From: a virus
DNA length: 64,000 nt
Virus record (IMG/VR): IMGVR_UViG_3300043749_000038
Span: 5,072 to 69,071 of that record
Strand: one strand, 5' to 3'
Shown: positions 421 to 64,000 of the stretch, in pieces
Position numbering within the stretch: position 1 is the stretch's first letter
How the letters are laid out: each line of letters begins with the position of its first letter
Program-made: the position numbers and the translations under genes
Notes under the pieces: model-generated
The model's database searches: none
Told to the model about the DNA's origin: nothing
Seen by the model: the letters and a program-made list of their open reading frames with translations, nothing else

Positions 421-1977
421 ATGGGCGTAGCGAATACACACGAAGATTACGATAACATGTTGTCGTCCTGGCAAGACTGCGCGCTTGCTATCGCGGGGCA
501 TAAGGCGGTGCAGAACGCAGGCGTTGCCGTCCTACCCATGCTGTCGGACCAGAGCAATGTGGAGTATCAGGCATACTTGCAACGCGCGACGTTCTTCAAT
601 GCGACGAAACGTACCTTGCAAGGTCTGTCGGGCATGATTTTCCGTAAGCAGTCGAATGTGGTTGTCCCGCCGTCGGTGCAACCGATGCTGCAAGACATCG
701 ACATGACCGGCAACTCGCTGGAAGTGCTCGCCAAGGCTACTGTCAACGCAGTGGTTGGCCTGGGCCGTGCGGGTTTGTTCCTGGATTATCCAACTGTCGA
801 CACGACGCAGGCAACCCAGGCAGACGCTAAGCGCCTGAACTTCCGTCCAATGATCAAGCTGTACGACGCGTTCTCGATCACTAACTGGAAGACGCGTGTC
901 ATTAATAGCATCAGCGTGCTGAGCCTGGTCGTGCTCAAAGAAATCAACAAGCAACCTATCGACGAGTTCACCGACAAGGACGTCGTGCAATACCGTGTCC
1001 TGGACCTGTTCGACGTGACCGACAGCAATGGTGTGGTTAGCACCCAGTATCGCGTGCGCGTTATGGAAGTGCAGAAGGACGAGAACACCGGCGAGGAAAA
1101 AGACGTCGTGGTGGAGGGACCGTTCTTCCCGAAGCTGAATGGCAAACAAATGGACTTCATTCCGTTCCAGTTTGTTGGGCCGGAAAATACCAACTGGCAA
1201 GTCTGCGAGCCTCCGCTGCTGGACCTCGTTGAAGTGAACCTGTCGCACTTCCGTGTTACCGCCGACTACGAACACGGTTGCCACTTCACCGGCTTGCCCA
1301 CACCTGTCATTAGCGGCTATGTGCCGGAGAACCAGAACGAGAAGTTCTACATCGGTAGTCTGTCGGCGTGGGTCTTCCCGAACGCCTCGGCCAAGGCTGC
1401 ATACCTCGAGTTCACCGGTCAGGGTTTGACCTGCTTGCGCACCAACCTCGAGGACAAGAAGAAAGACATGGCTGTGCTGGGGGCACGCATGCTCGAGGCA
1501 GAACCGACTGCGGTGCAGAGCGCAAATACCGCCGCAATACACCGGGGCGGGGAACAGTCCATGCTTGCAGCCATTGCGGAAACCGTGTCGACTGCAATTC
1601 AACGCATGCTGGGCTGGTTCTGTCAGTTTGCCAACGCAAGCGCGACGGACGTTAAGTTCCGCCTGAACAAAGACTTCTTCCCGATTCCGATGGACTCGCT
1701 GACTCTGACCGCAATCGTTGCAGCATGGCAGAACCAAGCAATCGACTTCGAAACCATGATCGACAACCTGAAGTCTGGCGAGATCGTCGATACGGACGCA
1801 ACCGCAGCGGACATCCAGGCAAAGATCAAGGCCAACCCGCCTCCGCTGCTCGACGTGCCGACCACTCCGGGGGACCGCGCACACAACGGTCCGGCTCAGG
1901 GCGCTGCCACGGGCACCACCCACAAAGGCGGGGCGACGAGCAGTAATCCAACGCAGACACAACTGCAAAACAGCTAA
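421..1977 (+). CDS. Portal protein (DUF4055-like)
   Basis: 518 aa after terminase; RATFFNAT, PPLLDLVEVNLSHF and YLEFTGQG motifs; GGAG RBS before ATG 421. Confidence 0.85.
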   Translation: MGVANTHEDYDNMLSSWQDCALAIAGHKAVQNAGVAVLPMLSDQSNVEYQAYLQRATFFNATKRTLQGLSGMIFRKQSNVVVPPSVQPMLQDIDMTGNSLEVLAKATVNAVVGLGRAGLFLDYPTVDTTQATQADAKRLNFRPMIKLYDAFSITNWKTRVINSISVLSLVVLKEINKQPIDEFTDKDVVQYRVLDLFDVTDSNGVVSTQYRVRVMEVQKDENTGEEKDVVVEGPFFPKLNGKQMDFIPFQFVGPENTNWQVCEPPLLDLVEVNLSHFRVTADYEHGCHFTGLPTPVISGYVPENQNEKFYIGSLSAWVFPNASAKAAYLEFTGQGLTCLRTNLEDKKKDMAVLGARMLEAEPTAVQSANTAAIHRGGEQSMLAAIAETVSTAIQRMLGWFCQFANASATDVKFRLNKDFFPIPMDSLTLTAIVAAWQNQAIDFETMIDNLKSGEIVDTDATAADIQAKIKANPPPLLDVPTTPGDRAHNGPAQGAATGTTHKGGATSSNPTQTQLQNS

Positions 1978-1992
1978 AAGCACAAATAGTCG

Positions 1993-2021
1993 TTGCATTC
2001 CAAAATTAGACGGACTATAAT
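1993..2021 (+). promoter_or_regulatory. Sigma70-like promoter for head genes
   Basis: TTGCAT-17 bp-TATAAT upstream of scaffold gene. Confidence 0.6.
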
Positions 2022-2103
2022 CGTACAAGTATCACCGTCTGACTAGGTCAACGACTATTTCACTTCTGCGGCTAGGCCGTTAATTCATCCTAAGGGGATA
2101 AAA

Positions 2104-2877
2104 ATGCATCCGAAATATTACACTGCTCCGAAACTCACACCGTTCATGCTGTTCGCCCGTGAAGGCGAAGGCGGTGGCGGCGGGGAAGCCGAGGCAGCGA
2201 TCCAGAAACGTATCGCGGATGCAGTGGCCGCAGAAGTGGCAGGTCTGAAAGCCAAGAACGACGAGCTGCTGGGCAAGAACAAAGCGTTGAGCGAATCGAA
2301 CAAACGCTTCGAAGGCATCGACGTCGAGAAGTACAACGCGTTCCAGCAACGCCTGGACACCGACGAAGACGCCCGTCTGATTTCCGAAGGAAAGACGACC
2401 GAGCTGGTTCAGAAGTACACCGAGCGCATGCGTAAGGAACACGAAACTCAACTCGCAGCAGTGCGGGCCGAGGTCGACGCTGAAAAAGTGCGCGGCAAGA
2501 AATACGAACAAGCGGTGCTGGACAACCAGATCCGCGCCGCATGTGTGGGCATGCACCCCAGCGCCATCGAGGATGCGCTGCTGCACGGTCGCACTGTGTT
2601 TTCGCTCGATGCCGAGGGCCGGGCGGTCAAAGCGGATGGCTCCGGCCGTCCGGAGCTTGGCAAAGACGGCCAGACTCCATTCAGCCCGGCTGAGTGGATC
2701 GAGTCGCAAAAAGAATCCAAACCGCACTGGTTCCCTGCATCCAGCAGCGGCTCGGGTTCGGCTGGTTCCAGCGGTGCTGGTGCCGGTGGCAAAACCATGT
2801 CTCGTTCGAAGTTCGACTCGTTGCCTGCAAGTGAAAAGGCAACTGTCGCGCGATCGGGCGTTAAAATCGTCGACTAA
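2104..2877 (+). CDS. Capsid scaffolding protein
   Basis: Coiled-coil, GLKAKNDELL motif, PHWFP then Gly/Ser-rich tail; immediately before the capsid gene. Confidence 0.8.
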   Translation: MHPKYYTAPKLTPFMLFAREGEGGGGGEAEAAIQKRIADAVAAEVAGLKAKNDELLGKNKALSESNKRFEGIDVEKYNAFQQRLDTDEDARLISEGKTTELVQKYTERMRKEHETQLAAVRAEVDAEKVRGKKYEQAVLDNQIRAACVGMHPSAIEDALLHGRTVFSLDAEGRAVKADGSGRPELGKDGQTPFSPAEWIESQKESKPHWFPASSSGSGSAGSSGAGAGGKTMSRSKFDSLPASEKATVARSGVKIVD

Positions 2878-2889
2878 TAAGGAGCCATC

Positions 2890-4035
2890 ATGGCAGTCAA
2901 TAGCCTTACCAACCTCATCGGCCCCCTGTTCGAATCGCTGGACATCGTCTCGCGCGAACTGGTGGGTGCCATCCCATGCGTCACTCTGGACGCTCAAGTC
3001 TCGCGTGCAGCCGTCGGCCAGCAAGTGACCTCGTTCATGTCGCCGACCGTCTCGGCTACCGACATCGTCCCGGGCATGCTGCCGCCGGACGACGGTGAAC
3101 AGAACTTCGGCAACGTTCAGCTGACCATCCAGAAGTCGCGCCGTATCCCGTTCCGCTGGAACGGCGAACAAGAGCTGGGTCTGAACAACAGCGGCTCCGG
3201 CGCTCGCAACCTGAAGAACGCCCAGATCACCCAGGCCATCCGTGCACTGGTGAACGAAATGGAAGTCGACGTCGTGACCGCTGCTCGCGTGGCAGCTTCG
3301 CGTGGCTGGGGCACCCCGGGCACCACCCCGTTCGCAAGCGGCGTGGGCGATTCCGCACAACTGCGCAAGATCCTGGACGACAACGGCGCCCCGCCGACCG
3401 ACCGCGCCGTTATCATCGACACCACTTCCGGCGCCAACCTGCGCACCAACACCCAGCTGACCAAAGCGAACGAAGCCGGTTCCATCCTAACCCTGCGTTC
3501 GGGCGAGCTGATCGAACTGCACGGCATGTCGTACCACGAGTCAGCCGGCGTCAAGCACGTCACCCCAGGCAACGGCGCCAACTACACCACCAACACGGCA
3601 GGCTACACGGCCGGTTCGACCGCCATCACCCTGATCACCGGTACGGGCGCCATCAACGCCGGCGACGTCATCAGCTTCGCAGGCGACCCGAACAAGTACG
3701 TGGTGGCAACCGCCCTGACCGGCGGCGTCGTGACCCTGGCAGCACCTGGCCTGATGCAAGCACTGCCGGCATCGGCCCAAGCTGTCACCGTCCTGGGCGC
3801 GTTCACGCCGAACGTCGCATTCGCCAGCTCGGCAATCATCCTGGGCTGCCGTCTGCCGGCCCTGCCGGAAGGTGGCGACTCGGCAGTCGACCGCATGACC
3901 ATCACTGATCCGCGCTCGGGCATCACCTTCGAGATCTCGATGTACGCCCAATACCGCCAGATGCAGTACGAGATCTCGGCGTCGTGGGGCGTGAAGGGCA
4001 TCAAGTCCGAGCACACCGCCCTGCTGCTGGGCTAA
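2890..4035 (+). CDS. Major capsid protein (P22-coat-like, with beta-rich insertion domain)
   Basis: 381 aa, strongly biased codons, position after scaffold, C-terminal WGVKGIKSEH. Confidence 0.85.
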   Translation: MAVNSLTNLIGPLFESLDIVSRELVGAIPCVTLDAQVSRAAVGQQVTSFMSPTVSATDIVPGMLPPDDGEQNFGNVQLTIQKSRRIPFRWNGEQELGLNNSGSGARNLKNAQITQAIRALVNEMEVDVVTAARVAASRGWGTPGTTPFASGVGDSAQLRKILDDNGAPPTDRAVIIDTTSGANLRTNTQLTKANEAGSILTLRSGELIELHGMSYHESAGVKHVTPGNGANYTTNTAGYTAGSTAITLITGTGAINAGDVISFAGDPNKYVVATALTGGVVTLAAPGLMQALPASAQAVTVLGAFTPNVAFASSAIILGCRLPALPEGGDSAVDRMTITDPRSGITFEISMYAQYRQMQYEISASWGVKGIKSEHTALLLG

Positions 4036-4058
4036 TCTCGGCGCAGTGTGGGCATCAG

Positions 4059-4086
4059 ACCGGCCGGAGAAATCCGGTCGGTTTTC
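4059..4086 (+). terminator. Rho-independent terminator after capsid gene
   Basis: ACCGGCCGGA-GAAA-TCCGGTCGGT hairpin followed by T run. Confidence 0.7.
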
Positions 4087-4105
4087 TAATAATTAGGAGT
4101 CCAAC

Positions 4106-4303
4106 ATGCAACTCGAAACGATCAAGGTCAAGTGCGCGGTTGTCCCGGGCAACGATCAAGGTTTTTACGTCATCAACAAGGAAGACTTCGATGCTGAAAA
4201 GCACGAGCTCTTCGATGCACCGGCCGAAGTCCCGAAGCAGGAAGAAACTAAACAAGAAGAAAAACCTGCCGAAGAGACCGTCAAGCCGTCCTGGCAGCAG
4301 TAA
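4106..4303 (+). CDS. Small virion-associated protein
   Basis: AGGAG RBS; INKEDFDAEKHELF motif of the kind seen in post-capsid small proteins. Confidence 0.55.
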   Translation: MQLETIKVKCAVVPGNDQGFYVINKEDFDAEKHELFDAPAEVPKQEETKQEEKPAEETVKPSWQQ

Positions 4304-4330
4304 TAACCACACATGACGTAGAGGTTCTAG

Positions 4331-6280
4331 ATGGCTAAGGGTGCACTTTCCACAAACCCGGTATCGACATACACGCTTCCGGCGGGTTGCGCGCCTTATG
4401 GTGTCGCTGCATCCCCCGACAGCAAGAACGTCTACGTCGTCACATCGGGATCGACTGCTGCAACAGCCGGTGTGATCCAGCTTGCGGTTAGTTCCGCCGA
4501 CGGCTCGCTCGGGCAGATCGGTACGCAGCCGCTGCTTGCGGCCACTTCCAACGGCCCGCGCCATGCGGTCGTGTCGCCGGACGGCAAGCACGTCTATGTG
4601 ACCGTCACGGGCTATGACAAGCTGTCGTATTTCGTGCGCAGCGCCACCGACGGTTCGCTCTCGGGGCTCACGTCCTATACGTCCGGTGTCTCCTACCCGA
4701 CGTACGTGGCGATCTCGGCCGATGGTGCGCACGTCTACCTCGTCAACAACAACAGTGGCGGTGCCAGCGGCAACGTCCAGGTCTACTCGCGCAATGCCAG
4801 CACCGGCGCGCTAACCCTGCTCCAGACGATTGCGCTTGTTGGCGCATTCGGCGTTGCAGCTACGAAGGACGGCAAGGCCGTCTATGTGTCGACCACAGCC
4901 AGCGGCGGTCAAGTCGTTGCCTACACCCGCGACGGCAACTCGGCGTCAGGTACGTACGGCCAGCTGACCGCTGTTGCATCGGGTGCGTACGCCACTGCTT
5001 CGGGCTTTCCGAACGCTGTCGGCATCTCGGACGACAGCGCATTCGTCTATGTGCTGAGCGACGCTGGTTCGCAGTACACGAGCTGCTATGCGCGCAACGC
5101 TGCTGACAACACGCTGACTCACGCGTCCACATGGTATCCGACGGTCGCCGCTGCTGACGCCAACGGTAACTGGGATATCGCACTGTCTGCAGATACGGGC
5201 AACACCTCGCTGTATTCCGCAATCAGCGATGGTCAGCGCATTGCGCAATTCACTCGTAATACCAGCACAGGCGTTCTGACGTCCAACGCAGCAGCGCCGT
5301 CGGTGTTCACGTCGAACTACAACGGCACGGCGCGTGGTAGCAACGGCCCGTACGGCCTCGCTGTCCTGCCGAACAATGCCTATCTGTATGCAGCGTCTTC
5401 CGCAGCCGCTAACACGGTCGACGTATTTACGATCGACCAAGGCGCAGTTGCTGACAGCACGCCGCCAACGTTCACCGGCACGATTGCCGCAACTTCGACC
5501 GGCAGCACGACCGAAACGCTCGACTGGAGCTCCACGACCCATACGGACAATGTGGGCATCACGTCTTACGACTACAGCCCGGACGGTACGAACTGGACCA
5601 ACACGGGCAGCACTGCAACGAGCGTCGGTCTGACCGGACTCGCGCCTTCCACGCAATACACGTATCAGGTTCGTGCCAAAGACGCGGCCGGCAATGTCTC
5701 CACCCCGGCCTTGTCCGTGACGTTCACCACTGCTGCGGGTGCAGACTCCGTCGCCCCTGTGATGCAAGGCTCGCTGTCGCTGAGCAACATCGGAAAGACC
5801 GGCGCCACGGTGAGCTGGTCCGCCGCAACCGACAACGTCGCGGTGACTGGTTACAAGGTGGACAGCGGCACCGGAGCCTACGTGGATGTGGGTAACGTGC
5901 TAACCACAAATGTTACGGGCAGAGCCGAACTGTCAAGTTCCGCAATTCGTGTGGTGGCATACGACGCAGCGGGTAACGTCTCGACGCCGCTGACCGCAAC
6001 CCTGAACACCATCGGCGCTTCGTACACTTTCGACACGATGAGCAATGGGTCAGGCGGTTACTGGGCAAATCAGGCCGTTGTCTGGAACTGGTGGCCGGGC
6101 GGACGCATCGGTTCGCTTGCCGGCATCACCCCTAAGCAGGGAACCGGCACCACGAATGCTTCCGGTGTGCTGACGCTCTCTGGCAACCTTCCGACCGGCG
6201 CAGGCCTGGCTCTGGTGGCAAAACAGAACACCGGCGCCACCGACGACGCTGTGTTTTATCAGGCTGGGACGGCGAACTAA
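4331..6280 (+). CDS. Putative head/neck fibre: beta-propeller plus two fibronectin type III domains
   Basis: Repeated SPDGKHVYV-type blades; two DxxxP...W...DNVxxTxY...VxAxDAAGNVS FN3 units. Confidence 0.7.
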   Translation: MAKGALSTNPVSTYTLPAGCAPYGVAASPDSKNVYVVTSGSTAATAGVIQLAVSSADGSLGQIGTQPLLAATSNGPRHAVVSPDGKHVYVTVTGYDKLSYFVRSATDGSLSGLTSYTSGVSYPTYVAISADGAHVYLVNNNSGGASGNVQVYSRNASTGALTLLQTIALVGAFGVAATKDGKAVYVSTTASGGQVVAYTRDGNSASGTYGQLTAVASGAYATASGFPNAVGISDDSAFVYVLSDAGSQYTSCYARNAADNTLTHASTWYPTVAAADANGNWDIALSADTGNTSLYSAISDGQRIAQFTRNTSTGVLTSNAAAPSVFTSNYNGTARGSNGPYGLAVLPNNAYLYAASSAAANTVDVFTIDQGAVADSTPPTFTGTIAATSTGSTTETLDWSSTTHTDNVGITSYDYSPDGTNWTNTGSTATSVGLTGLAPSTQYTYQVRAKDAAGNVSTPALSVTFTTAAGADSVAPVMQGSLSLSNIGKTGATVSWSAATDNVAVTGYKVDSGTGAYVDVGNVLTTNVTGRAELSSSAIRVVAYDAAGNVSTPLTATLNTIGASYTFDTMSNGSGGYWANQAVVWNWWPGGRIGSLAGITPKQGTGTTNASGVLTLSGNLPTGAGLALVAKQNTGATDDAVFYQAGTAN

Positions 6281-6490
6281 ATGTTACGCAACCTTAACGT
6301 ATCTACAGCCGGTTCGAGACTTCTGAGCAGCCCTGCTGTTCAGGGCCCTCCGCCGGTCACTATTGACGCAAGTCAGATTCCGAAGATTCGCTGGATCACG
6401 TTTGCTGGTAACAGCCGTGTTGTCAGCTTCGAAGGAACCGGCCGTGTTATCAGCTTTGATGGTACTAACCGTACCATCCCGTTTAACTAA
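6281..6490 (+). CDS. Hypothetical protein with 9-aa RxxxFxG repeats
   Basis: Abuts previous stop; RWITFAG/RVVSFEG/RVISFDG/RTIPF. Confidence 0.5.
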   Translation: MLRNLNVSTAGSRLLSSPAVQGPPPVTIDASQIPKIRWITFAGNSRVVSFEGTGRVISFDGTNRTIPFN

Positions 6491-6498
6491 GGACTATC

Positions 6499-6843
6499 AT
6501 GACGATCAACCGTAACCCGTATTACGACACCGCAAGGGATCGTTGGTATGTCGACAAAGACCCTGACAATCAGTGGACTTACGTTGCTGACATGACCTCC
6601 GAACTGACGCTGAACAACACCACGGCGTCGACTTGCACAGCAATTGTGAGCGATTCGCGCATTACGGTACTCGCTGGTCCGACCGTGCAGACTCCCGGCA
6701 ATTTGCTGATCAAAGTGAAGTTTTCTGGTCCGGTTGTCGGAAGCGGAACTTACACGGACGACGCGTTCATTACTCTGCGTACGGTATGCGCTAACGGGGA
6801 CCAGTTCGACAAGACCATTTGGGTCAAGCCCGTGCAGGACTAA
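6499..6843 (+). CDS. Putative fibre adaptor protein
   Basis: KDPDxxxxYxxD motif, beta-rich, AAGGA RBS. Confidence 0.5.
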   Translation: MTINRNPYYDTARDRWYVDKDPDNQWTYVADMTSELTLNNTTASTCTAIVSDSRITVLAGPTVQTPGNLLIKVKFSGPVVGSGTYTDDAFITLRTVCANGDQFDKTIWVKPVQD

Positions 6844-6844
6844 C

Positions 6845-7015
6845 ATGGACCAGATTGACGCCACCATGCTGGTTAAGATCCAGAAGGAGCGGTTGCTGAA
6901 AGAGCAAGCTGCTCCCGTAACTGCGCCCGCTCAAACTGTGCTCCCGCAGCCCAGCGCGGGGCCTTACCCATTGAAAGGCGTCGTCCCCAATTATCCTTTG
7001 AAGGGTAAAGTATGA
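6845..7015 (+). CDS. Hypothetical protein (56 aa)
   Basis: Fills gap between neighbours, ATGA overlap with next gene; duplicated YPLKG. Confidence 0.45.
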   Translation: MDQIDATMLVKIQKERLLKEQAAPVTAPAQTVLPQPSAGPYPLKGVVPNYPLKGKV

Positions 7016-7563
7016 GCCTCATCGTTGAAGACGGCAGTGTTGTGGCCGGTGCTGAGTCTTACGTCACTGTTGAAGACGCGGACTTGTACCACTACAACAG
7101 GGGCATGACGGCATGGACAGGCCTTGACGTAGCGAGCAAAGAACAGGCCCTCCGCCGTGCCACTGACTTCATGCTCGGTCGGTATCGCGGTCGTTGGAAG
7201 GGTGCTAAAACTCGCTATCAGCAAGCGTTGGACTGGCCGCGCGTCGGCGTGACGCCGGACGATGCGCAGAATCCATTCAGCACTCAAATCGGTTACGGGT
7301 ACGGTTATAAATACGTGATCCCTTATACCGTTGTTCCGAACGAGGTGAAGAACGCTTGTTGCGAACTGGCCTTGCGTGCTGCGTCTGGTCCGCTGCTTGC
7401 CGACCTTGAGCCGCGCATCTTAACCGAGACGGTTGGTCCGATCACGGTCAAGTACGACCCGAGCTCGCCTCAATACATCCGTTATGCGCAAGTCGACGCA
7501 ATTCTTTCACCGCTGCTTGCAAACGGCGGCGTGGGTGCGACTGTCAAACTGACACGCACTTAA
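7012..7563 (+). CDS. Head-tail adaptor (DnaT-like annotated family)
   Basis: MSLIVEDG...AESY, QALDWPR, VKNACCELA, ETVGPITVKY motifs. Confidence 0.8.
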   Translation: MSLIVEDGSVVAGAESYVTVEDADLYHYNRGMTAWTGLDVASKEQALRRATDFMLGRYRGRWKGAKTRYQQALDWPRVGVTPDDAQNPFSTQIGYGYGYKYVIPYTVVPNEVKNACCELALRAASGPLLADLEPRILTETVGPITVKYDPSSPQYIRYAQVDAILSPLLANGGVGATVKLTRT

Positions 7564-7569
7564 AAGAGC

Positions 7570-7598
7570 TTGCTTTGCCCAAACTTCCATGCTACCAT
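7570..7598 (+). promoter_or_regulatory. Sigma70-like promoter for neck/tail genes
   Basis: TTGCTT-17 bp-TACCAT in intergenic gap. Confidence 0.45.
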
Positions 7599-7622
7599 GC
7601 CTGTATTCTGTAAGGTGTGGGC

Positions 7623-8015
7623 ATGGACTATACTCGGATCGCGCAAGTTGTAGTAAAGCAGATCGCCAGCTACGGGCGAGATGTTACCTTGCGCCAGTTT
7701 CCGTACGGAGCAGCAACCTACGACCCTACCAGCTTGACCGTAAGCGCTCCAACGTCCCAGCCCGTTGAGACTGTCGTCAAGGGTCTTGTTACCGACCAGC
7801 CTGGTAAAAGGATCGGACCTCAGTACGGCACGAACATGAAGAAAGACACTCTGATCGAAGACGGTCAGAAGTGGATTTACATTGACGGCATGGGTCCGAG
7901 GCCTAAACCGAATGACAAAATTGTAATCGGCGACGTAGAGTACACAGTCGACGATGTGCAGGAAACTGCACCCGGCGACGTGGTTCTGTTCTATTTAGTA
8001 GTGCTGTACCGATGA
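7623..8015 (+). CDS. Head closure/stopper protein
   Basis: Position, size, YGRDVTLR and YDP motifs. Confidence 0.6.
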   Translation: MDYTRIAQVVVKQIASYGRDVTLRQFPYGAATYDPTSLTVSAPTSQPVETVVKGLVTDQPGKRIGPQYGTNMKKDTLIEDGQKWIYIDGMGPRPKPNDKIVIGDVEYTVDDVQETAPGDVVLFYLVVLYR

Positions 8016-8545
8016 GCAAGTACGGGATCAACACTGCGGCAATGGAAGGTATCTTTGCCTTCGTGAGCCGAAGCAAACAGGGGATTCACACTTGCACGAA
8101 GTATGCTCTGTTGGAGATCGGTGTACGGTTGCAGATGTATTCGGCTGTGGGCGATCCGAGTTTGTGGTCGAAAGAATCTGTGCGGAGGGCGTTGCATAAG
8201 AATTACGTACCGGGTTTATTCATCAACAATTGGCAACTTGGAGTTGACCAGTTCCCCACAGGGATGTTGACGAATACGCCTGACGCTAGTGCAAGCACGT
8301 CGACAAGGAGCTTGACAAAGATTCCTCGTTGGCCTGCTTATCACGACTATTACTTCGTGAACAATACGCCGTATGCTCAGAAGTTGGAGCTAGGCTACCA
8401 TTCGCACCAAGTGCCACCGGGGGGAATGGTTGGGCGCGTAAGGTTGGAGTTCCCACAGATTATTCAGGAAGCAATCGCGAAGTATCATTCTGGAGTTGGA
8501 GATGTCACAGGTAAAAATCAAGTCAGCTCTGCATACGGCGATTAA
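8012..8545 (+). CDS. Neck/tail completion protein (HK97 gp10-like)
   Basis: NNTPYAQKLELGYHSHQVPPGGMV motif. Confidence 0.7.
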   Translation: MSKYGINTAAMEGIFAFVSRSKQGIHTCTKYALLEIGVRLQMYSAVGDPSLWSKESVRRALHKNYVPGLFINNWQLGVDQFPTGMLTNTPDASASTSTRSLTKIPRWPAYHDYYFVNNTPYAQKLELGYHSHQVPPGGMVGRVRLEFPQIIQEAIAKYHSGVGDVTGKNQVSSAYGD

Positions 8546-8909
8546 CGCAATGTCGCCGTCTTTGCCGACGGCTTGGCCGAACGTGACGTTCGATCCTGAT
8601 AACAGAGTTCCGTGGCAGAAGGTTAATGTGGTATTCTCCCAACCGTCCGAACCTACGGTTGGGAGCGATTACTATCAAGAAATCGGCTTCCTGCAAGTGA
8701 CCTTGTATTACCCGCTCCTTCAGGGGGATGGGCCAGCTACGTCGAGGGCGGAGCTGATTCGCAATACCTTCAAAAAAGGGACGTCCGTTGTTAAGGACGA
8801 CGTAACGGTCCAGTTTAACAAAGTGGCACAAATCTTAGAAGGCGTACCGACAGACGAACAGTACATCGTCGTTGTTCGGGTTCCATTTTACGCTAATATT
8901 TACCTCTGA
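8502..8909 (+). CDS. Tail terminator protein
   Basis: AWPNVTFDP, GFLQVTLYYP motifs; precedes tail tube. Confidence 0.7.
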   Translation: MSQVKIKSALHTAINAMSPSLPTAWPNVTFDPDNRVPWQKVNVVFSQPSEPTVGSDYYQEIGFLQVTLYYPLLQGDGPATSRAELIRNTFKKGTSVVKDDVTVQFNKVAQILEGVPTDEQYIVVVRVPFYANIYL

Positions 8910-8920
8910 AAGGAACGATC

Positions 8921-55572: not shown

Positions 55573-55605
55573 GTAGAACTCCGTAAAATTAGCGAAAGCA
55601 TGTAC

Positions 55606-55634: not shown

Positions 55635-56705
55635 GTTATTTGCTGTTTGGTGGGAGGGTGCCCGAGGAATGGGGGTGTCCCCGCTAGTTTTGCAGCCCCC
55701 CAGAGTGTGAAAAGTAAGCTGTTTGTACGGGGGGTGGGGCCTATAGGGGCTACCCTGGCTACCAAACTCGCTTTTTAAACTTTTCACAATGTGTGTTTTT
55801 AAGTTTTTTTGTTAATTAATTTGGCTAATTTCTGTAGTTTAGCTATGTAAACCCGGTAAGAATCGGGTTAGTAACAGGTTTAATGCATCAAAATCACACA
55901 AACCACAGACCAGCAGCTCGCTTCAGCATGCAAGCCACACAAAAATGCGCGGCTCAAAGCGCACAACTGTATATCCACTCCATAGTGTGGGCATACAGTT
56001 GGAGCCTGGTGCAAAACCAAGCTCCTTAGCTCATCTCACAGCCTGAGTAGATTGTTCATGAGTATTCAGTCCTTATCGCTTATAACGTTCAATAATTGCT
56101 TCGGTCATCGTTACAACAGCCTGTTCGCCCATGCGCAGCAAATCTGCGAGGGTCTCAGGCTTGTAGCTGTGAGCTCCTGTCTCGTTAATGATGGTCAGCC
56201 CGTGGACTTTGTGGGTGCGGTACTCAACCGTCACCGCGCGAACCATAAAAGACAGCTCGTCGTCACGGAAACTAAAATCAATGTGCGTGCGGACCATACT
56301 TCCTCCTATGTGTGGTTATAAAGCCTGAGCAGACTACTCGTGAGCAGCCCAGGCGGGTGGGTTAAAGTAAAACAACACCGACACTGAACTTAATGACGGT
56401 GGACGCAGGGTCCCATTCGTAATGCGGAGCAGACAGCTTACCAGTCGCGACGCTGCGCGATTGGGAATAGTACAATTGCTCTGTGTCGGCGTCTAAGACT
56501 TCGGCGTACGTTGCCTTGTATTTGTTGATCTGCAGATTGCGCACAACGTTGACACTTGCTTCGAACAGGTTAGAACCGCGAGTGGTCTTGACCAACTCAG
56601 TCTTGTACCAATAACGCGTCATTAACTTCGGTGGTGCATCCTTGACCGAGCCAGTCTGCATCACAATTTTACCTTCCATAATTCACTCCATTTAATGTGG
56701 CACAT

Positions 56706-56759
56706 ACCACAGACGCCCAATTAAGGGCGTTTCGACCAATTAGGTCTCGTCAGTGTGGT
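56706..56759 (-). ncRNA. Type I hammerhead ribozyme
   Basis: ACCACA-CUGACGA-GACC(UAAUU)GGUC-GAAAC-GCCC(UUAAUU)GGGC-GUC-UGUGGU: full catalytic core and three stems. Confidence 0.9.
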
Positions 56760-56963
56760 TATAAAAGCTTGCTCATACGATCGCGAAGCTCATCCTCAAC
56801 GTTAATGGTGTCGAGTATCTTAAGCATGTCGTATTGGTTTAAGTCTTTACCGAACTCATGCTTTAAGACTTGCAAGAGCTCCATTGCGAACTTATCGAGC
56901 GTGTTGTTCACAACTGCGTCCAGCCGACTCATTGCGCTCATGAGTAATCTCCTCAAGGTTAAT

Positions 56964-56987
56964 AAAAAGCCCGCTGGTTAGGCGGGC
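56964..56987 (-). terminator. Rho-independent terminator
   Basis: GCCCGC-loop-GCGGGC-TTTTT on minus strand. Confidence 0.65.
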
Positions 56988-56995
56988 CGGGCGAA

Positions 56996-57622
56996 TCACT
57001 GTGCTGCCGGAGCAGGCTGTGTAGGCATGCTGGCCACCGGGATGAGCTGGGAGCGACCTTTGATGCCGTTGTACGAGCGCCACCGAGCGAACTGAGTTTT
57101 GATCGTGTGCTCGTTGACGTCCTTGAGATCCGGGTGCGCACGCACTTGGCTGATGAGCGCCGGGTGGCCGTTCTGGTCGTGGCTGATCTTGTCAGCGATT
57201 GCCCAGATTTGGCCGCACAGCGAATCTGGTGCCGGGCGGGTGATGCCGTTCTGCTGCTGCTTGTCCGCCTTGGGAGCACGAGCTTGCTTGGGCTGGCCAA
57301 GGACGACCGAAGGGTTGATGCCGAGTGTTGCTGCGAGTTGTTCAACTTGCTTCTTGAACTCGAGCTCTTTCTTCTGCTCTTCGGTCAGCTCCGGTTCCTT
57401 GTGCACTGCCGGCGTGGTTTGGGTCGTCGGTGCGAACTGCTGGCGACGATCGTGGTCCGCCTGGCGGCGTTCAGCCTTGCGCTGCTCTTCGTCGACTGCG
57501 TGTTCCTCTTTCGGAGTCTCGAGGTTCTTGCCTTTCGGGCCTTCGACGGTGCCTTGAGCGACTTTGTGCACACGCGGAGCACGTTTTGCAGCAGCTTTCG
57601 GGGCGGTTTGAGTAGTTGCCAT
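56996..57622 (-). CDS. Putative DNA-binding protein (paralog 3)
   Basis: NGITRP...QIWAIAD...NEHTIKTQFARW. Confidence 0.7.
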   Translation of the reverse strand: MATTQTAPKAAAKRAPRVHKVAQGTVEGPKGKNLETPKEEHAVDEEQRKAERRQADHDRRQQFAPTTQTTPAVHKEPELTEEQKKELEFKKQVEQLAATLGINPSVVLGQPKQARAPKADKQQQNGITRPAPDSLCGQIWAIADKISHDQNGHPALISQVRAHPDLKDVNEHTIKTQFARWRSYNGIKGRSQLIPVASMPTQPAPAAQ

Positions 57623-57699
57623 GATAAATTACCTTTCGCTAGTAGGTTTAAAGAGCAACGTCCTTGCGGACTTCGGCAGGATTGCCGGCAGTATGCACG

Positions 57700-57833
57700 G
57701 TTAATGCACACTGCGAGCACCCCTACAACGCACGGCAAGCTTTGTTGCCACGGTTTTCGCAGCTTGGGTAGGGTGGGAGTAGCTTCCCACCCCTTACACC
57801 GCTTGTAGCTTGCGGCGCCCAAACTGCATTAAC
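57700..57833 (-). ncRNA. Putative multi-branched structured RNA / leader
   Basis: 9-bp closing stem GTTAATGCA/TGCATTAAC just downstream of TAAAAT; internal hairpins with repeated AAGCUAC loops. Confidence 0.5.
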
Positions 57834-59071
57834 TACATTTTAGCCCAAAATTGCGAATTTAAACGTGCTGGGCGTCGCTTTTTGGGGTCTTATCAGCGTC
57901 AAAGAACGATTCAGCGAACACAAGAGCGGGATAACCTCGGATTCCAAGGAATAACTCGAGATTTATCATAATGCTCTGCACTCCCATGCCCTTCTTGACC
58001 TCGTCTTTGATAACCTCGACAGTGTGGTTATACTGCTTGCCAAGGTAGAAGCGAACGTCGTCCATCGCCTTCTTGCGCTTGAGGTCTTCATTCGTGAATT
58101 TTGAGTAGTCTACGGTCCAGTGCATGATTAACGTCCTTTCTCGCGAGCGAATTGAGCGAAACCAGTTGCAATGTCGGCATCAGGCGTCTGGAAGATGTCC
58201 AAGTCGGTCTTGGCAAGGTATTCGTCAATGAGATCGTCGAGCATTCCGATGTACCAATCGTGCAGCAAGATGCTGAGCCAGTCTTTACGAGCCGTGACAA
58301 ACGCTGCGTTCTTGATCTCACACGGCGTGTCTTTGTATTCTTGCAGTTTCATTTGTTCTCCTTAGTTGAGTTCGAGCAAAGCGCTCGACAAGTGAGCCAG
58401 TTAAGGCCCACTTAGCTAGAGCTTTACTTCATGCAGTCCATGACAGCTTCCATCACTTGACCCTTGCGCAGAGCCGAGTCAACAGCGTCGTACATGTAGT
58501 CCTGCACGAAGCCGCTAACGCCTTGATCGCGAAGGAACGCGAGGAAGTCCGGGTTGAAGAAGTTCCCTTCGAATCGTGGCAGGAGTCGATGCTTCATGAC
58601 TACTTGCATCCCACCTTCAACGGGGGCGAACTCCACTTTGTCGTTCGACTTGAAGTCGACTGCGGTAATTTGCAGGTCATTCATGACGTCAGCACGCATC
58701 GTTTCTTCGTAGGTGTTGACGCGGGTGGTTTTAGTTGCCATGTTGATTCTCCTTGGTTGGTACTGCGGTTATGAGCAAAAGCGCTCGTGAATGCCCACGG
58801 TATGTGTGGGCATAAGCTAGAGCTTTACTTAATGTTGAAGCGACGCTTGAGTTCTGCCTTCACTTCACGAGCAACAGGACCTCGCCAGGTTTGTGCATTG
58901 ACGAGGAAGTAGGTGCAGATTTCCTCTGCGTTGGCGAAGCCGTAACGGTCACCATCCTTCACGAAGGAAAACATCGCTTCGATGTAAGGGACCGCGCCGA
59001 AGTAAGGCTTCTTCCAGTCGTCTTTAATGATCTTGGCGATTTCAGCTACGCGCATGTCTTGCAGGTTCAGA

Positions 59072-59245
59072 TTACTCATGGCTATTCTCCTCTTGCTGTT
59101 TGACGTACTCAACGAGTACTTTGTTCATCATTGGTTGGTAATTCGCGCCAAGTTCCTCAGCACGTTGTTTGAAATAAGCGACAACTTCCTTGTCTACATA
59201 CAAGCAAACTCGGTCCTTGTCGTCATTTTTACGCTCTCGGCCCAT
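59072..59245 (-). CDS. BrnA-like ribbon-helix-helix protein (57 aa)
   Basis: RVCLYVDKEVVAYFKQRA...NYQPMMNKVLVEYV resembles the BrnA/CopG RHH pattern. Confidence 0.6.
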   Translation of the reverse strand: MGRERKNDDKDRVCLYVDKEVVAYFKQRAEELGANYQPMMNKVLVEYVKQQEENSHE

Positions 59246-60928
59246 GATTAAGCCCCCATCGTGAAACCACCAGCCCAACCATCGGGTTGGCGTTCGACGC
59301 TGCGATCTTCGTTGCAGATCCAACCCTCGACAAGTTCCACTTCAACCAAAGCGATGGACGCCAGTTCGTAGTGGTCGCCTGCCACGGCATCTACTTTCAT
59401 CATAGCAAGCAGCTTTTCTTGGCTGTCACGTGACACTCCCAGGCTACGGATACTTTCGAGCATCTCGTTTGCACGGTTGATAACACCAACGACGTTGGCT
59501 TGTTTGAATTGGTTCGAATTCATGATTTACTCCTTTAAGGTTAGATGCAAAGTGCATCCAGTAGCCCAGCACGCTGAGCTATAAGATTACTTTACGGTCG
59601 CAAGCTCAATGGCCTGTACAGCGTGCGGAGGTAGCGGATGCTATCCCACCACAACCGAGCAGACTCGAGATCATAGAAGATTGCTTCGAAACTATGATCA
59701 GTTCCAAACTGCTCAGCTGTTTGGTACTCCACCTTGTATTCTTTCATGTTTAGAACTCCACATCTTCTGGTTTAACAATGATCCACATTGCCATTACTTG
59801 CAACAGGATCGACGGAACACTGCACAATGTCCGATTCCACACAGTGGAATCCATCGGCAGGTAGTAATTGAGTACGAACATGTAGACGATGGCTGAGATA
59901 GTCATAGCTACGCTCATCACGCTGTTGATGATCAGCTTCTCTTTTTGGAGTTGGTGCTCGGTTTTGGCTTTGTACATGATTTTTATCCTTGTTGTTGAGT
60001 TAGTGCAAGAGCGCACTCACTACCTCAGCACGCTGAGGTAGTAAATTGCTCTTACTTACTCGCAGCCATCAGAGCGTCTTCCATTACCCACTCAAACAAG
60101 TCACCTTCAAGCGTGTCGTGAACTGCATTACGCAAGCTGACTGGTTTGCTGTAGTCTTGTTTGTTGAGGAAGACTCCTTCTTTGATTCCTTGCTCAGCAC
60201 GTTTGATTGCGCAGCGTACGATCAACCAGACTGCAAAGTGGGTGAGTAGATGGTTCATGATTAATCTCCTCTCGTTGGTTGAATTAGTTGCACACTTCCA
60301 TTGCTTCAGGTTCGGTCCAAGTGAGGTCGCCCTCGGTCTTGGTGACTTCCACGATTTGCTGCTTGCACTCGTGAGTAGCCTGCTCATGCTGCTTGTGCGC
60401 AGCGTACATGACAGGCAAAGCAGCGACTGCTAAGATAACAGCGTGCACGACCATGTAGAAGTGTATCTTTTTCATGTTGTTGCTCCCTTGTTGTGTGGTT
60501 ATCAACTAATGCAGCCTGTTCCCAAGCTCCATTAGTATGCCGCCTGTCACGCGGTCACACCCCAACCATGGCGGACTCAATTACTCGTGATGTTGTACTA
60601 GCCTTGAGTAGTTGCTTTAGGTTGGTGAGTACTCATGTGCATGTTTAATGGCTTTTCGGGTAAGGTACTGTTAATTACGAACTTGCTATGTCTGCAAGCC
60701 ACTTTAACATGAACCCCTATTATTGTTGACTACTGGAGTACCGCTTTACAGTGTTACCCTTTTGCATGAGTGTGTTGCTGTACTGTTGTATTGTTAAAGA
60801 ACCGACCAGTGCACAGCGTTATGTGTGCGGCCTACTGCAAACTAGCTAAGTGGTGCGCTTGATGCTGCTTAGTTGGGCATACTGTCACTACACCCAAGTA
60901 AGCAACCCTTGCGGGTTGCGCTACCGCA

Positions 60929-61363
60929 TTACTGCTGTTGCGCTGCTGCCTTTGCTGCTGCGGTGCGGTACACACCAACTTGCGTACTAGCAGTTGCTTT
61001 GTTAATACCGTTGTCGGTGCACAACTGCACCATTTGTGCGCGCGTGTAGTGCGGGTACTTAGCGCACAGTGCGTGTACAGCAGCGCAGGGGCGCAGCGCT
61101 ACCCCGTCGACTACAACACTAGTGTTGCTTGGGGTAACTGTTGCGCTATTAGCACGCGCGGTGCCGGTATGCAACAAGTGTTGTACGTTTGCAATACCGT
61201 GCTGCGCAGCAAGCTGTTGCACACCAGCAATAAACGCTGCTTGCGCTGCTGCATGTTTACGTGCAGCATTTTTGCTTGCGCGCAATTGTTGCACCACAGC
61301 AATGCGTTGTTGCATACGGGTAACAGCGTTGCGTTGCACTTGGGTAAGTTGTTGTTTTTGCAT
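60929..61363 (-). CDS. First gene of leftward arm; Glu-free protein with putative DNA-binding domain (paralog 4)
   Basis: RPCAAVHALC...RAQMVQLC...GINKATASTQ; own promoter and AAGGT RBS. Confidence 0.7.
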   Translation of the reverse strand: MQKQQLTQVQRNAVTRMQQRIAVVQQLRASKNAARKHAAAQAAFIAGVQQLAAQHGIANVQHLLHTGTARANSATVTPSNTSVVVDGVALRPCAAVHALCAKYPHYTRAQMVQLCTDNGINKATASTQVGVYRTAAAKAAAQQQ

Positions 61364-61456
61364 GGTTGCACCTTAACAATAAAAGTTAATAAAAAGTAAT
61401 GTGTGGTATTTTTACCACGTTTACCAGGTAGCACCGTTGCTGCTTGGTATGTGTTT

Positions 61457-61485
61457 ATTATACGCTTAATTGCGCAAAAATGCAC
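61457..61485 (-). promoter_or_regulatory. Sigma70-like early promoter
   Basis: GTGCAT-17 bp-TATAAT on minus strand. Confidence 0.6.
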
Positions 61486-61553
61486 TGTATGCCTGTACAG
61501 CCCGAGTAACATATATTTTTATTGAAACTGCTGGCTCGATAGGTAAAACCTAT

Positions 61554-61644
61554 TGCTTAAAAATTAGGCAACTTGCCCGAAATTTAGGCACTGCCTAATT
61601 TATAGGCGCTGCCTAGTTTGTAGGCATTGCTTAAAAAGTAGGCA
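61554..61644. repeat. Five tandem 17-bp imperfect palindromes TGCCTA-N5-TAGGCA
   Basis: Units start at 61554, 61574, 61592, 61610, 61628. Confidence 0.85.
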
Positions 61645-61916
61645 ATGTTGCTTACCGTAAATAAGTTGCCAATTTGATAAGATTTTCGGGTATGGGCCAT
61701 CTACCAGCAATAAAAACTCCGTCCTGCCTAGATAGGACATCAAGTTACACTTAATACATCAATAATCCCAACTCCCTATCCAACACCCACCCCCTTCCTA
61801 AAATACTGCCAACATCCCAATTCTGGATCCCCAAAAAAACAAAGGTTGGATACTATATTTTCTACACTAGTTTCAGTAAACACGGTACACTGCGGTTTTC
61901 TCTTAAAGGTGTCTAA

Positions 61917-62501
61917 ATGAACGACTTTAAAATTGACGGCAAATGGGCCCGCTCTGTCGGCGGAACTCTTACTTATTCGTATCAAATCTGGTATAGCATG
62001 ATGCAGCGCTGTATTCCGGGAGGTCGAATCCAAAAACTTTACAAAACGTATGACGGTTGTCACACTTCGGAATTGTTCTCTGACTTTGATCGTTTCGCAG
62101 ATTGGCTTTCTGTGCAGCCGGGCTACCAGCTTCCTGATTACGATCTCGACAAGGATTTGCTTTTTGACAATAACAAGCTTTATTCTGAAGACACTTGCGT
62201 TTTAATCCCACACGCACTGAACACATTTTTTATCGCTACCAGAGACAGAGAATTGCCACAAGGGGTTAGCGCTCCTTTAAGCCGTTTTGGAACAAAGAAG
62301 CCGTTCAAAGCGCAGTTGAGGGTTGACGGGGAGATTAAATACCTCGGCATGTTCCCAACTGCAGAGGCTGCGTTTTCGGCTTATAAAGTGGCAAAAGAAG
62401 CACATGCTAGGCAATGGGCCGAACGTTTAGCTGCTGGTGAGTTCATTGTAGATCCTCGGGTCATTGATAGGATGCGCGTCTGGACTGTGCCATCCAAGTG
62501 A
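61917..62501 (+). CDS. HNH-type homing endonuclease with AP2-like DNA-binding domain
   Basis: W.SM.QRC, LDKDLL...K.YS..TC...P..LN, YLGMFPTAEAAFSAY; lower GC. Confidence 0.75.
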   Translation: MNDFKIDGKWARSVGGTLTYSYQIWYSMMQRCIPGGRIQKLYKTYDGCHTSELFSDFDRFADWLSVQPGYQLPDYDLDKDLLFDNNKLYSEDTCVLIPHALNTFFIATRDRELPQGVSAPLSRFGTKKPFKAQLRVDGEIKYLGMFPTAEAAFSAYKVAKEAHARQWAERLAAGEFIVDPRVIDRMRVWTVPSK

Positions 62502-62523
62502 TAGATAGACACCACAATTCATT

Positions 62524-62532
62524 TGCTATAAT
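62524..62532 (+). promoter_or_regulatory. Extended -10 promoter
   Basis: TGC-TATAAT upstream of 62586 ORF. Confidence 0.5.
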
Positions 62533-62585
62533 GCATTGCCCAGCATATAGTAACAACACAACAACGCCAACCGACTGGATACAAG

Positions 62586-64000
62586 ATGACCATTAAACCC
62601 GCCCTCAAGCCGCGACGCAACAACATCATCGCCGACCACCTCAATATCCAGGAACTCCTGCTTCCGGGCCGTTGTGTGGGCAAATCCACTGCCCTGGCCC
62701 TGCGCACCATTGCACACGCCTTGCAAAACCCGGGAATGGATTTCCAAATTGTGGACCACGTCCCGCAAACCCGCGCAGAAGAGCATACCATGCGCCTCGT
62801 CGAGAAATACCTCCAAAAACTGAACTTCGTGGGTTTCACCATCAAAAAGACGCCCAACGGCAAGTTCTTCCTGCGTTTCGACCTGTATCCAACCAAGGCG
62901 GCTTAACCATGGACCATCTCGACGCCCTCGACCTCTTCTACTGCGCGCTCCCAACCATCCTCGCAGTTGTGTGGGCATGGTATTCCAACTACAAGATCAT
63001 GTTGCTGGAAGCCGAGAACGCTCAACTGCGTGCAGAACTGTACCAAGCAACCTTCCGGCGCTCGCTGGACTAACCACAAGGAGAAACAAATGACCGCACT
63101 TACCATCGGACTTAGCTGCATCCTCGTTGCCTCCATCTTGCTGAACTTGTTCCAGTACCTGGAGACCTGCAACATCCAGGGCGAGAACTACCGGCTGCGG
63201 GACCAGTTAGAAGGAAGCGTGCGCCACAACAAGGACTTGACGGTCAAGCTCGAAGTGCAAAGCGATCGGCTCGAGAAGCTGAAAGACACTTACGCAATGA
63301 CTGCAACCCGCGCCGTTCACGCAGAACGCGATTACCGCAACGTGCGCGCAGCTCACGTCGAACTGCTGGACAAAATTGCCGCAGGTACGGTTATTGATCC
63401 CGCCATTGTGCAAATGTTCACCAATCAACAAGATAGTTAATCATGCCCACAGTAACCCAAACCTGGAACCATACCGAGCCTTGGGGCGAGAATCTCCACA
63501 AAGAACTTCAACTGCTCACCATCGGTGGAATCAGTGTGCTGGGTCGCTGGAGCGGTAAGTTCGGAGAGCATTATGTGGGTTGGGCAAAGCCCGCGTACAT
63601 TGCGCTCTCCCCCTACAACCCTGTCCCTCAAAGGAGCAACGATGTTACTCACAGCCTTTCGTGAGATTTGGGAGACCATCACCAAGCCTGGTTTCTGGCT
63701 GCTGGTGTTCTTCAACAATGCACTGGACGCGTTTGCTGCGTACCACAACTTCAACGTCATCCAGTTTGCATGCTGCATTACTCTGATGATCACCTCCACC
63801 ATCCTCTACTTTATCTGCAAGGTGCGTAAATGACTCCGGAAGACAAAATCGAACTGAACCAAATCATCCAACAAATCGGTCCGGCTTTGCAACAAGCCAT
63901 CCAGGACGGCGTGTTGGGCGCCTTGCGTCAGCACCACGAAGAGATTTCGAAAGAGATCGTGCAGTTCGCCACCGCCGAGCTCAAGATTGCCGAGCCCCAA
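62586..64000 (+). other. Small rightward hypothetical genes (62586-62906, 62909-63073, 63090-63440, 63443-63664, 63642-63833, 63830->end)
   Basis: Coupled ORFs, several with single TM segments. Confidence 0.55.

Follow-up and report, generated by a model that had tools for sequence, protein, structure and literature searches.

The stretch of DNA analysed here, 64,000 nucleotides (nt) long and called the window below, covers bases 5072-69071 of a 69,071-nt single-contig phage genome (IMG/VR record IMGVR_UViG_3300043749_000038), and the sole public sequencing run that holds its DNA is a soil metagenome. Gene calling for this analysis gave 110 genes and 91% coding DNA. Structural genes occupy the + strand up to position 22902, the - strand carries the replication and early genes from 22961 to 61363, and a short block of + strand genes runs from 61917 onward. 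Spread through this genome are 90 copies of the word family TGTGGKYA (K is G or T, Y is C or T; four words summed over the whole genome), and among the - strand genes is one for an 809-amino-acid (aa) primase-polymerase/helicase with an N-terminal Prim-Pol domain, an NrS-1-type helix-bundle and a C-terminal DUF3987 helicase-like domain. Judged from the distribution of the word and from the relatives of this enzyme, the word probably provides priming sites for lagging-strand synthesis by the phage's own primase-polymerase/helicase.

The enrichment of the word is not a product of base or codon composition. An earlier, sequence-only reading of the window had counted 38 copies of TGTGGGCA by hand (21 on the + strand and 17 on the - strand); the high total is borne out, while the exact figure is 40 (23 and 17), where 100 dinucleotide shuffles give a mean of 2.68 and a maximum of 8. 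Its count of 21 copies of TGTGGTTA is exact (mean 1.37 and maximum 4 in the same kind of shuffle), and the two further words that it described as recurrent, TGTGGTCA and TGTGGGTA, occur 16 and 6 times in the window. For the family as a whole, the 90 observed copies compare with 30.7 +/- 3.0 after synonymous-codon shuffling within genes (maximum 40 in 300 shuffles, which keep 19 non-coding or edge sites unchanged), with 25.0 after codon permutation, and with 7.9, 16.8 and 24.9 under Markov models of order 3, 4 and 5 (maximum 43 in 100 shuffles at order 5). No shuffle of any kind reached 90. Maximal-order Markov z-scores are uninformative for this 8-mer because its own 6- and 7-mers hold the signal. 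Thus the enrichment persists under codon, dinucleotide and Markov order 3-5 backgrounds, a check that the sequence-only reading had itself proposed, and its view that codon bias does not easily account for the copies stands.

The specificity of the word is revealed by its near neighbours. Positions 1-5 and 8 are strictly specified, with single-base neighbours there at chance level; position 6 is G or T, and position 7 is C or T and weakly A, the form ending in GGAA being minor (8 versus 1.5 expected). The flanks show a preference for G at -1 (57 of 90 sites) and for A or T at +9 (69 of 90). The pentamer TGTGG occurs 199 times in the genome versus 133 expected under Markov order 3, so that there is no depletion of partial sites in this genome. 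In the 43-kb phages PaeS_C1 and Halfdan TGTGG is rare outside the motif, and its continuations in PaeS_C1 comprise 20 copies of TGTGGGCA, 7 of TGTGGGCT and 2 of TGTGGGCG, the next five shown having one copy each; this suggests that partial sites are avoided in the 43-kb phages.

The taxonomic distribution of the word shows that it belongs to the phage lineage and not to its hosts. A megablast search with 20 kb of the window against phage records returned no match, and relatives were found via the primase protein. The closest cultured ones by this measure (45-52% identity) are the Nipunavirus NP1/PaMx25-like phages, Iggy, Acinetobacter phage HD01 and Sphingomonas phage MMDA13, and their gene order agrees with that of the window. 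The sample comprised 12 GenBank phages of the 383 records with a primase homologue (for most of them the first 50 kb) together with 8 IMG/VR loci of 9-23 kb; the records also include temperate Listeria, Lactobacillus and Bacillus phages in which only the N-terminal domain is present. When 8-mers are ranked against Markov order 3 expectation, first place goes to a member of the word family in every one of the 12 cultured phages. More specifically, TGTGGTCA leads in NP1 (34 observed versus 1.3 expected), VPv62 (32 versus 1.4), DoCa3 (33 versus 1.2), MMDA13 (38 versus 1.3) and JenP1 (27 versus 2.2, with TGTGGTTA at 20 versus 2.5); TGTGGTTA leads in Iggy (36 versus 1.4), HD01 (21 versus 2.5) and Greed (36 versus 1.9); TGTGGGCA leads in PaeS_C1 (20 versus 0.3), Halfdan (20 versus 0.2) and RcTitan (17 versus 0.3); and in Loki the leading word is AATGTGGG (20 versus 0.9), with TGTGGGCA at 13 versus 1.0. 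These phages infect seven genera (Pseudomonas, Variovorax, Xanthomonas, Acinetobacter, Sphingomonas, Escherichia and Rhodobacter) and range from 42 to 59% in GC content. TGTGGKYA is 4-8 times as frequent as expected in the short IMG/VR loci (22 versus 3.3 in the closest relative of the window, locus L006), and a family member is the top 8-mer in only 3 of the 8. No enrichment was found in Pseudomonas phage YuA (0 versus 2.1 expected), in Escherichia phage T1 (5 versus 2.5) or in one 50-kb stretch of E. coli K-12 (4 versus 6). The motif is therefore specific to the phage lineage, being top-ranked across phages of seven host genera, and to this extent the earlier reading of a dispersed recognition site is supported.

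The placement of the sites indicates the level at which they are maintained. As the sequence-only reading had noted, they lie in coding and intergenic DNA and in both orientations: 71 of the 90 are fully coding (39 sense and 32 antisense to the gene), 14 fall between genes and 5 straddle a gene end. The coding sites fall in sense frames 1 and 2 (11 and 26) and in antisense frames 1 and 2 (15 and 15), with 4 sites in total in the two frame classes that require a Cys codon. Because the four frame and orientation classes are used freely and only the Cys-forcing classes are avoided, selection acts on the DNA and not on the protein. Genome-wide, TGTGGTTA has 22 sites, 6 of them in intergenic DNA and 3 across a gene end with the word's TAA as the stop codon, a placement in keeping with selection for the positions at which the word is least costly. 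This has a bearing on the earlier claim that TAACCACA often sits, in sense orientation, between a stop codon and the next ribosome-binding site or start codon. The sites at 4304, 45726, 49647, 56311 and 60494 are indeed intergenic, whereas the one at 54609 lies within the last codons of the upstream gene and at 63071 the TAA of the motif is the stop codon itself, and the claim is thus partly right; if the word is a priming signal, the sense orientation ahead of ribosome-binding sites would follow from the passage of the + strand series across - strand genes. In the gap between two tail genes at 10870-10905, an inverted pair of motifs (10873 on the - strand and 10895 on the + strand) forms a hairpin with 10-nt arms, ATGCCCACAT and ATGTGGGCAT.

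Comparison of related genomes, a check akin to one suggested in the sequence-only reading, shows the sites to be kept above background. In locus L006, which has 71% nucleotide identity to the window in the alignable parts, 7 of 11 alignable window sites are the identical word, versus 9.6% of background 8-mers. The same pattern is seen from NP1 to VPv62 (36 of 40 sites kept versus 67% identical background 8-mers), from NP1 to DoCa3 (40 of 42 versus 72%), from VPv62 to DoCa3 (33 of 37 versus 57.5%) and from Greed to JenP1 (5 of 13 versus 9.8%). The sites are thus under purifying selection.

The spacing of the sites is more even than chance, and this evenness is a property of each strand taken by itself. 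Over all 90 sites the coefficient of variation (CV) of the gaps is 0.71, versus 0.98 +/- 0.10 for random placement (0 of 2000 as low), and the largest gap is 2181 nt. On the + strand alone (n = 58, mean gap 1155 nt) the CV falls to 0.42 versus 0.98 for random placement (0 of 2000 as low). When the positions are fixed and the strand labels permuted, the weighted per-strand CV rises from 0.54 to 0.81 +/- 0.07 (0 of 3000 as low), and per-strand regularity is lost in this way in 10 of 11 genomes; on the - strand of Halfdan 12 sites, spaced 3602 nt apart on average, have a CV of 0.17. Because permuting the strand labels destroys the regular spacing in 10 of 11 genomes, the strand-separate regularity points to a process that reads one strand, a property on which the test bears only indirectly. 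Sites on opposite strands are in places 14-150 nt apart, which is expected if the two series are independent; in three pairs the distance is 14-22 nt (5887/5901, 10873/10895 and 24849/24863). The strand that is sense for the structural genes holds 262 of 432 sites over 11 genomes (p = 1e-5), with 52-65% in each. Mean per-strand gaps across the genomes tested are 1.2 to 5.5 kb. Okazaki fragments measure 1-3 kb in bacteria and phages, and the per-strand gaps lie in that size range.

The 809-aa protein is a primase by several criteria. It matches PHROG 3022 'DNA primase' (E 1e-210), the Pfam families DUF3987 and PF22763 NrS1-1_pol-like_HBD (residues 239-286, 28.5 bits against a cut-off of 27.9), and, by BLASTP, the NrS-1 primase with 29% identity over residues 55-273 (E 5e-14); matches in the PDB are 7ola, 6a9w, 6k9a and 7rr3 (NrS-1 N300 structures and a primase-helicase). 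A DxD motif, an SxSGxGxH loop and a tyrosine aligned with NrS-1 Y261 are kept. According to the available part of the published work, the Y261A mutant of NrS-1 has much weaker primase activity (PMC8718748). The same portion of that report states that NrS-1 polymerase recognises 5'-TTTGGTTA-3' and, more efficiently, 5'-GTGG/GTGA-3', and that recognition occurs via the helix-bundle domain with synthesis starting at the first base upstream (PMC8718748). TGTGGTTA agrees with TTTGGTTA at 7 of 8 positions and contains GTGG.

In the relatives the primase is part of a common replication module that also includes a superfamily 2 (SF2) helicase, a Cas4-like nuclease, a family A DNA polymerase (PolA) and a clamp. 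Of the cultured primase-bearing phages 12 of 12 have the motif, as against neither of the 2 control phages, but the primase always stands alongside the other four, and this co-occurrence does not single it out; in PaeS_C1, Halfdan, Loki and RcTitan, which have no match to the DNA-modifying enzyme DpdA, the motif and all five components are present. Of the proteins in this shared module, the primase is the only one whose family has a specificity in the literature that matches the word.

Other sequence-reading primases share some of the features of this system and lack others. The NrS-1 enzyme is homologous, with Prim-Pol, helix-bundle and C-terminal helicase-like domains, and an 8-nt word is associated with both. 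The two systems differ in that NrS-1 has few and clustered words whereas this genome has about 90 copies spread at regular per-strand intervals, and in that NrS-1 is temperate and without a separate PolA or clamp whereas the phages here have both. The pRN1 ORF904 primase likewise has a helix-bundle domain and reads a GTG core on a single-stranded template; the accessible text of its characterisation states that GTG is required and that the initiating ATP is placed opposite the first base 5' of GTG (PMC2965215), a base which corresponds to the invariant T of the present motif. In contrast to pRN1, where three bases suffice and chance supplies the sites, the window motif specifies eight positions, and therefore the genome has to carry its sites deliberately. 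DnaG-type phage primases resemble the proposed system in that a template word, read on one strand, sets the starts of lagging-strand primers. They are an unrelated enzyme family whose 3-5 nt sites, such as the extended T7 sites TGGTC/GGGTC, are frequent by chance, and we know of no report of such sites being evenly spaced or strongly over-represented. The core sites listed for them in published work are GTC for T7 and GCA for SP6 (PMC2965215).

Taken together, these findings allow a model in which the word 5'-(G)TGTGG(G/T)(C/T)A(A/T)-3' would be the template recognition and initiation signal of the primase, an enzyme of archaeo-eukaryotic type. At the replication fork, where DNA becomes single-stranded, the helix-bundle domain would bind the GTGG core and its 3' KYA extension, and primer synthesis would begin at the word or just 5' of it, the invariant T1 being the base 5' of GTG. 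Chance would offer an enzyme that requires so long a word just one site in about 8 kb of each strand; the genome would have gathered additional copies, which selection would keep about 1.2 kb apart on the + strand and 2.2 kb apart on the - strand. The outcome would be Okazaki-fragment starts programmed by sequence, and the strand excess could reflect forks that move more often in the direction of late transcription. Both the primase as reader and the start of priming at the sites are what we infer from these data and from the analogy with NrS-1. If correct, the priming signal, the most economical of the readings, would account at once for the enrichment, the purifying selection, the Okazaki-scale spacing on each strand and the independence from the host.

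Several observations weigh against this model. What ties the primase to the word is a 29% identity, across about 220 residues, with the enzyme of a distant phage, and the primase is not separable by co-occurrence from the SF2 helicase, the Cas4-like nuclease, PolA, the clamp or the DUF669 protein. In the NrS-1 genome the 8-mer is reported in 2 copies at the genome centre, discussed as a possible origin (PMC7102993); in AB746912, TTTGGTTA has 1 copy (17198, - strand) and the reverse complement of TTTGACCA has 4. Eight GGTTACAC repeats (4 on each strand), which include copies reading TGTGGTTAC and TTTGGTTAC, lie within 17061-17370, directly downstream of the NrS-1 primase gene. There the 8-mer is thus rare and the repeats are clustered in about 300 nt rather than dispersed, and genome-wide use of the word is not established even for this characterised enzyme. 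The base at -1 varies among relatives and is G in this phage, not a pyrimidine, and therefore synthesis begun there would not start with a purine. In the spacing data, the - strand of this genome is only weakly regular (n = 32, mean gap 2186 nt, CV 0.76, fraction 0.085), Iggy has no per-strand regularity (CV 0.88 versus 0.82 permuted), and the orientations do not alternate to a significant degree (48 of 89 versus 41.3, p = 0.08). The model also gives no reason for the shift in preferred variant, GGCA in this phage as against GTCA or GTTA in its nearest relatives (mainly GTTA and GTCA in the closest, L006). The sample, 12 of 383 records and 8 short loci with few controls, is also small, and NP1, DoCa3 and VPv62, being mutually 91-94% identical, represent one lineage and are not independent.

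Any reader that translocates along one strand would suit the strand-specific pattern as well as a primase does, and the SF2 helicase and Cas4-family nuclease, which accompany the motif wherever the fetched region covered them, could be such a reader. The word would then be a phage-specific Chi-like signal that attenuates degradation or triggers recombination and marks phage DNA as self. Chi sites are indeed 8-mers, over-represented and read on one strand, and Chi and stoperator arrays share with the motif the character of dispersed, asymmetric, over-represented 8-13-mers in coding and non-coding DNA. This explanation appears unlikely: no published specificity ties such nucleases to the word whereas the primase family has one, and regular spacing is not, to our knowledge, a property of Chi. 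Known Chi sites are, moreover, host words read by RecBCD or AddAB, and the motif is the same across phages of seven host genera and at chance level in 50 kb of E. coli, on which ground a host Chi or uptake sequence was rejected. The sequence-only reading had favoured a phage protein that coats, organises or protects the genome, and a duplex-DNA site for a small phage regulator or architectural protein that would compact, organise or regulate the genome, such as the 76-aa helix-turn-helix-like (HTH) protein encoded next to the primase, can be envisaged. Small proteins annotated as HTH or DNA-binding adjoin the primase gene in several relatives (Loki ORF33), the 76-aa protein itself has a weak HTH_17 match, and intergenic sites are somewhat over-represented (14 plus 5 at gene edges, of 90, versus 9% non-coding DNA). 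Yet the regularity of spacing is strand-separate and lost when strand labels are permuted, opposite-strand sites come as near as 14-22 nt, and orientation is independent of transcription, all of which make a duplex binder quite unlikely. RcTitan also keeps the motif while the gene upstream of its primase is annotated as an endonuclease, with no homologue of the 76-aa protein by tblastn, a weak argument as short proteins diverge fast. The closest known analogue of such a binder is the stoperator array of cluster A mycobacteriophages. Stoperators follow the direction of transcription and occur in temperate phages with a repressor, and neither holds for the window motif: with the coding sites divided 39 to 32 between sense and antisense and 71 of 90 sites inside genes, repressor sites of this type were set aside, and neither integrase nor repressor nor other sign of lysogeny turned up among about 30 window proteins scanned, a scan that was not exhaustive.

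The genome encodes a 7-deazaguanine pathway, and phage genomes with nicks at consensus sites are known, so that the word might instead carry a covalent mark, as a site of nicks in one strand, like those of T5, tf or phiKMV, or as the target of a DNA-modifying enzyme such as DpdA. Both forms of this idea are improbable. The motif is equally enriched in the four phages without a DpdA match, PaeS_C1, Halfdan, Loki and RcTitan, and DpdA was accordingly rejected as the reader. Published DpdA targets, as given in the consulted parts of the respective papers, span only 2-3 nt: GA in Iggy (PMC10484667), and both GA and GGC in CAjan (PMC7544227). Neither GA nor GGC is present on the strand of TGTGGTTA and TGTGGTCA that is recognised, whereas TGTGGGCA does contain GGC. 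Nicking at both members of the three opposite-strand pairs 14-22 nt apart would break the duplex. That the word has no function and is a by-product of codon, dipeptide or mutational bias is most improbable. The order 5 Markov expectation does climb to 24.9, in a model trained on the motif-bearing genome, but 90 copies exceed every shuffle, four frame and orientation classes as well as non-coding DNA are used, and the sites are evenly spaced and conserved above background; codon or dipeptide bias was rejected on frame usage and shuffles. A DnaA box was rejected as well. Its consensus, TGTGGATAA, would need an A as the sixth base and a terminal TAA, whereas none of the 199 TGTGG continue with ATA, and ATC, ATT and ATG follow 3, 2 and 1 times.

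The neighbourhood of the primase gene contains a further arrangement of the word. The 76-aa protein (Pfam HTH_17, E 0.007, 17 bits, below the cut-off), whose homologues were found by tblastn in NP1 and HD01 only, among 13 loci, is encoded immediately upstream of the primase, and the non-coding stretch ahead of this operon (Table 1) is a candidate operator or origin-like element. Between its two outward-facing sites lies a perfect 12-nt inverted repeat, TAACGTGCGTTA (45757-45768) and TAACGCACGTTA (45786-45797), with 17 nt between the arms. The paper on MMDA13 describes a 12-nt repeat with GCGTTAACCA in a large non-coding region.

Elsewhere in the window, PHROG and Pfam matches identify a portal, a major head protein, tail proteins, a family A DNA polymerase, an SF2 helicase, a ligase, QueC-like and radical-SAM QueE-like proteins, GTP cyclohydrolase I, thymidylate synthase, AAA_24, DUF669 and the 809-aa primase. 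A 2108-aa open reading frame in the tail-gene block (11082-17408, + strand) stands at the position of the relatives' tape-measure gene and is about twice the length of the annotated tape-measure genes of NP1 and Iggy. Also on the - strand, at 36658-37557 and 38037-38882, are closely placed genes for a DUF669 and an AAA_24 (Sak4-like) protein; a phage two-protein system containing DUF669 mends CRISPR cuts, according to the available part of a recent report (PMC13687109, 2026). A 7-deazaguanine DNA-modification module occupies 27130-32033 (- strand). Where the - and + gene blocks diverge, an AT-rich gap holds repeats of a word of about 20 nt, ATTGCTTAAAAANTAGGCAA, at 61552-61681; this is probably an early promoter or operator region.

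Table 1. Positions of the motif sites, the primase gene and other features of the window
Feature	Position	Strand	Remarks
TGTGGGCA	23 sites (first base): 2544, 4047, 5551, 7616, 9154, 10895, 12890, 14467, 15368, 17508, 21353, 21585, 22629, 23561, 37615, 39506, 44481, 52524, 53609, 55986, 58805, 62675, 62970	+	span 2544..62977
TGTGGGCA	17 sites (lowest coordinate): 1295, 10873, 16453, 19294, 21993, 24308, 24849, 33230, 33985, 39080, 39677, 45864, 47117, 50427, 52401, 53528, 63444	-	span 1295..63451
TGTGGTTA	16 sites: 1032, 11552, 18575, 27328, 31484, 34374, 42396, 45726, 48369, 49647, 52184, 54609, 56311, 56754, 58023, 60494	+	span 1032..60501
TGTGGTTA	5 sites: 4304, 5901, 27475, 55128, 63071	-	span 4304..63078
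TGTGGTCA	10 sites: 9583, 16220, 18243, 19922, 24863, 28885, 29731, 35620, 47281, 49769	+	span 9583..49776
TGTGGTCA	6 sites: 11440, 28830, 35698, 41653, 41817, 49026	-	span 11440..49033
TGTGGGTA	6 sites: 5887, 26123, 32887, 38855, 41095, 51283	+ only	span 5887..51290
Primase-polymerase/helicase, 809 aa	43074..45503	-	proposed motif reader
76-aa protein	45493..45723	-	weak HTH_17-like candidate, rival DNA binder; overlaps primase gene
Non-coding stretch upstream of HTH-primase operon	45726..45871		outward-facing sites: 45726 (+), 45864 (-)
SF2 helicase	33892-35628
Cas4-like nuclease	35625-36524
DpdA homologue	27130-28059	-	54-62% identity to relatives' annotated DpdA / 'queuine tRNA-ribosyltransferase'
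GTP cyclohydrolase I	28699-29382	-
QueC-like protein	29934-30965	-
Radical-SAM QueE-like protein	31314-32033	-
ATTGCTTAAAAANTAGGCAA repeats, direct copies	61552-61571, 61626-61645		2 copies
ATTGCTTAAAAANTAGGCAA repeats, partial inverted copies	61592-61607, 61663-61681		2 copies

Primase recognition sites are already known as a kind of element; a genome-wide, evenly spaced and strand-specific array of them across several phage genera appears to be new. No published description of the dispersed motif or of its spacing was found in the main texts searched, with supplements and Zhu et al. 2017 outside that search, and TGTGG/CCACA is absent from the main texts (supplementary files not covered) of the Iggy, CAjan, MMDA13 and R7M papers. 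Among the matches listed for the 8-mers in the phage and primase literature, the only one from a phage is an incidental entry in a table of ribosome-binding sites (KL1 paper).

The broader proposition, for which the chances appear slightly less than even, is that a large group of siphophages (the Queuovirinae genera, Iggyvirus, Septimatrevirus, Lokivirus, Titanvirus and this soil phage) hard-wires every Okazaki-fragment start via an 8-10-nt word, in two interleaved, strand-specific arrays that are evenly spaced and under purifying selection; host DNA, where the word is no commoner than by chance, would then rarely be primed, which would confine phage-driven replication to phage DNA. In phage engineering, recoding or the insertion of long cargo could delete or dilute sites that the phage needs. 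In uncultured phages, a top-ranked 8-mer together with low variance of the per-strand gaps would, if the priming model is true, be a signature that predicts primase specificity. Sequence-specific primases are well known, with sites short enough to arise by chance, and the 8-nt requirement of NrS-1 polymerase is puzzling in that its own genome holds the word once or twice. As priming sites, the arrays in these phages would reveal the means by which so specific a primase-polymerase still sustains lagging-strand synthesis, and they would constitute a genome-encoded ruler for the length of Okazaki fragments.

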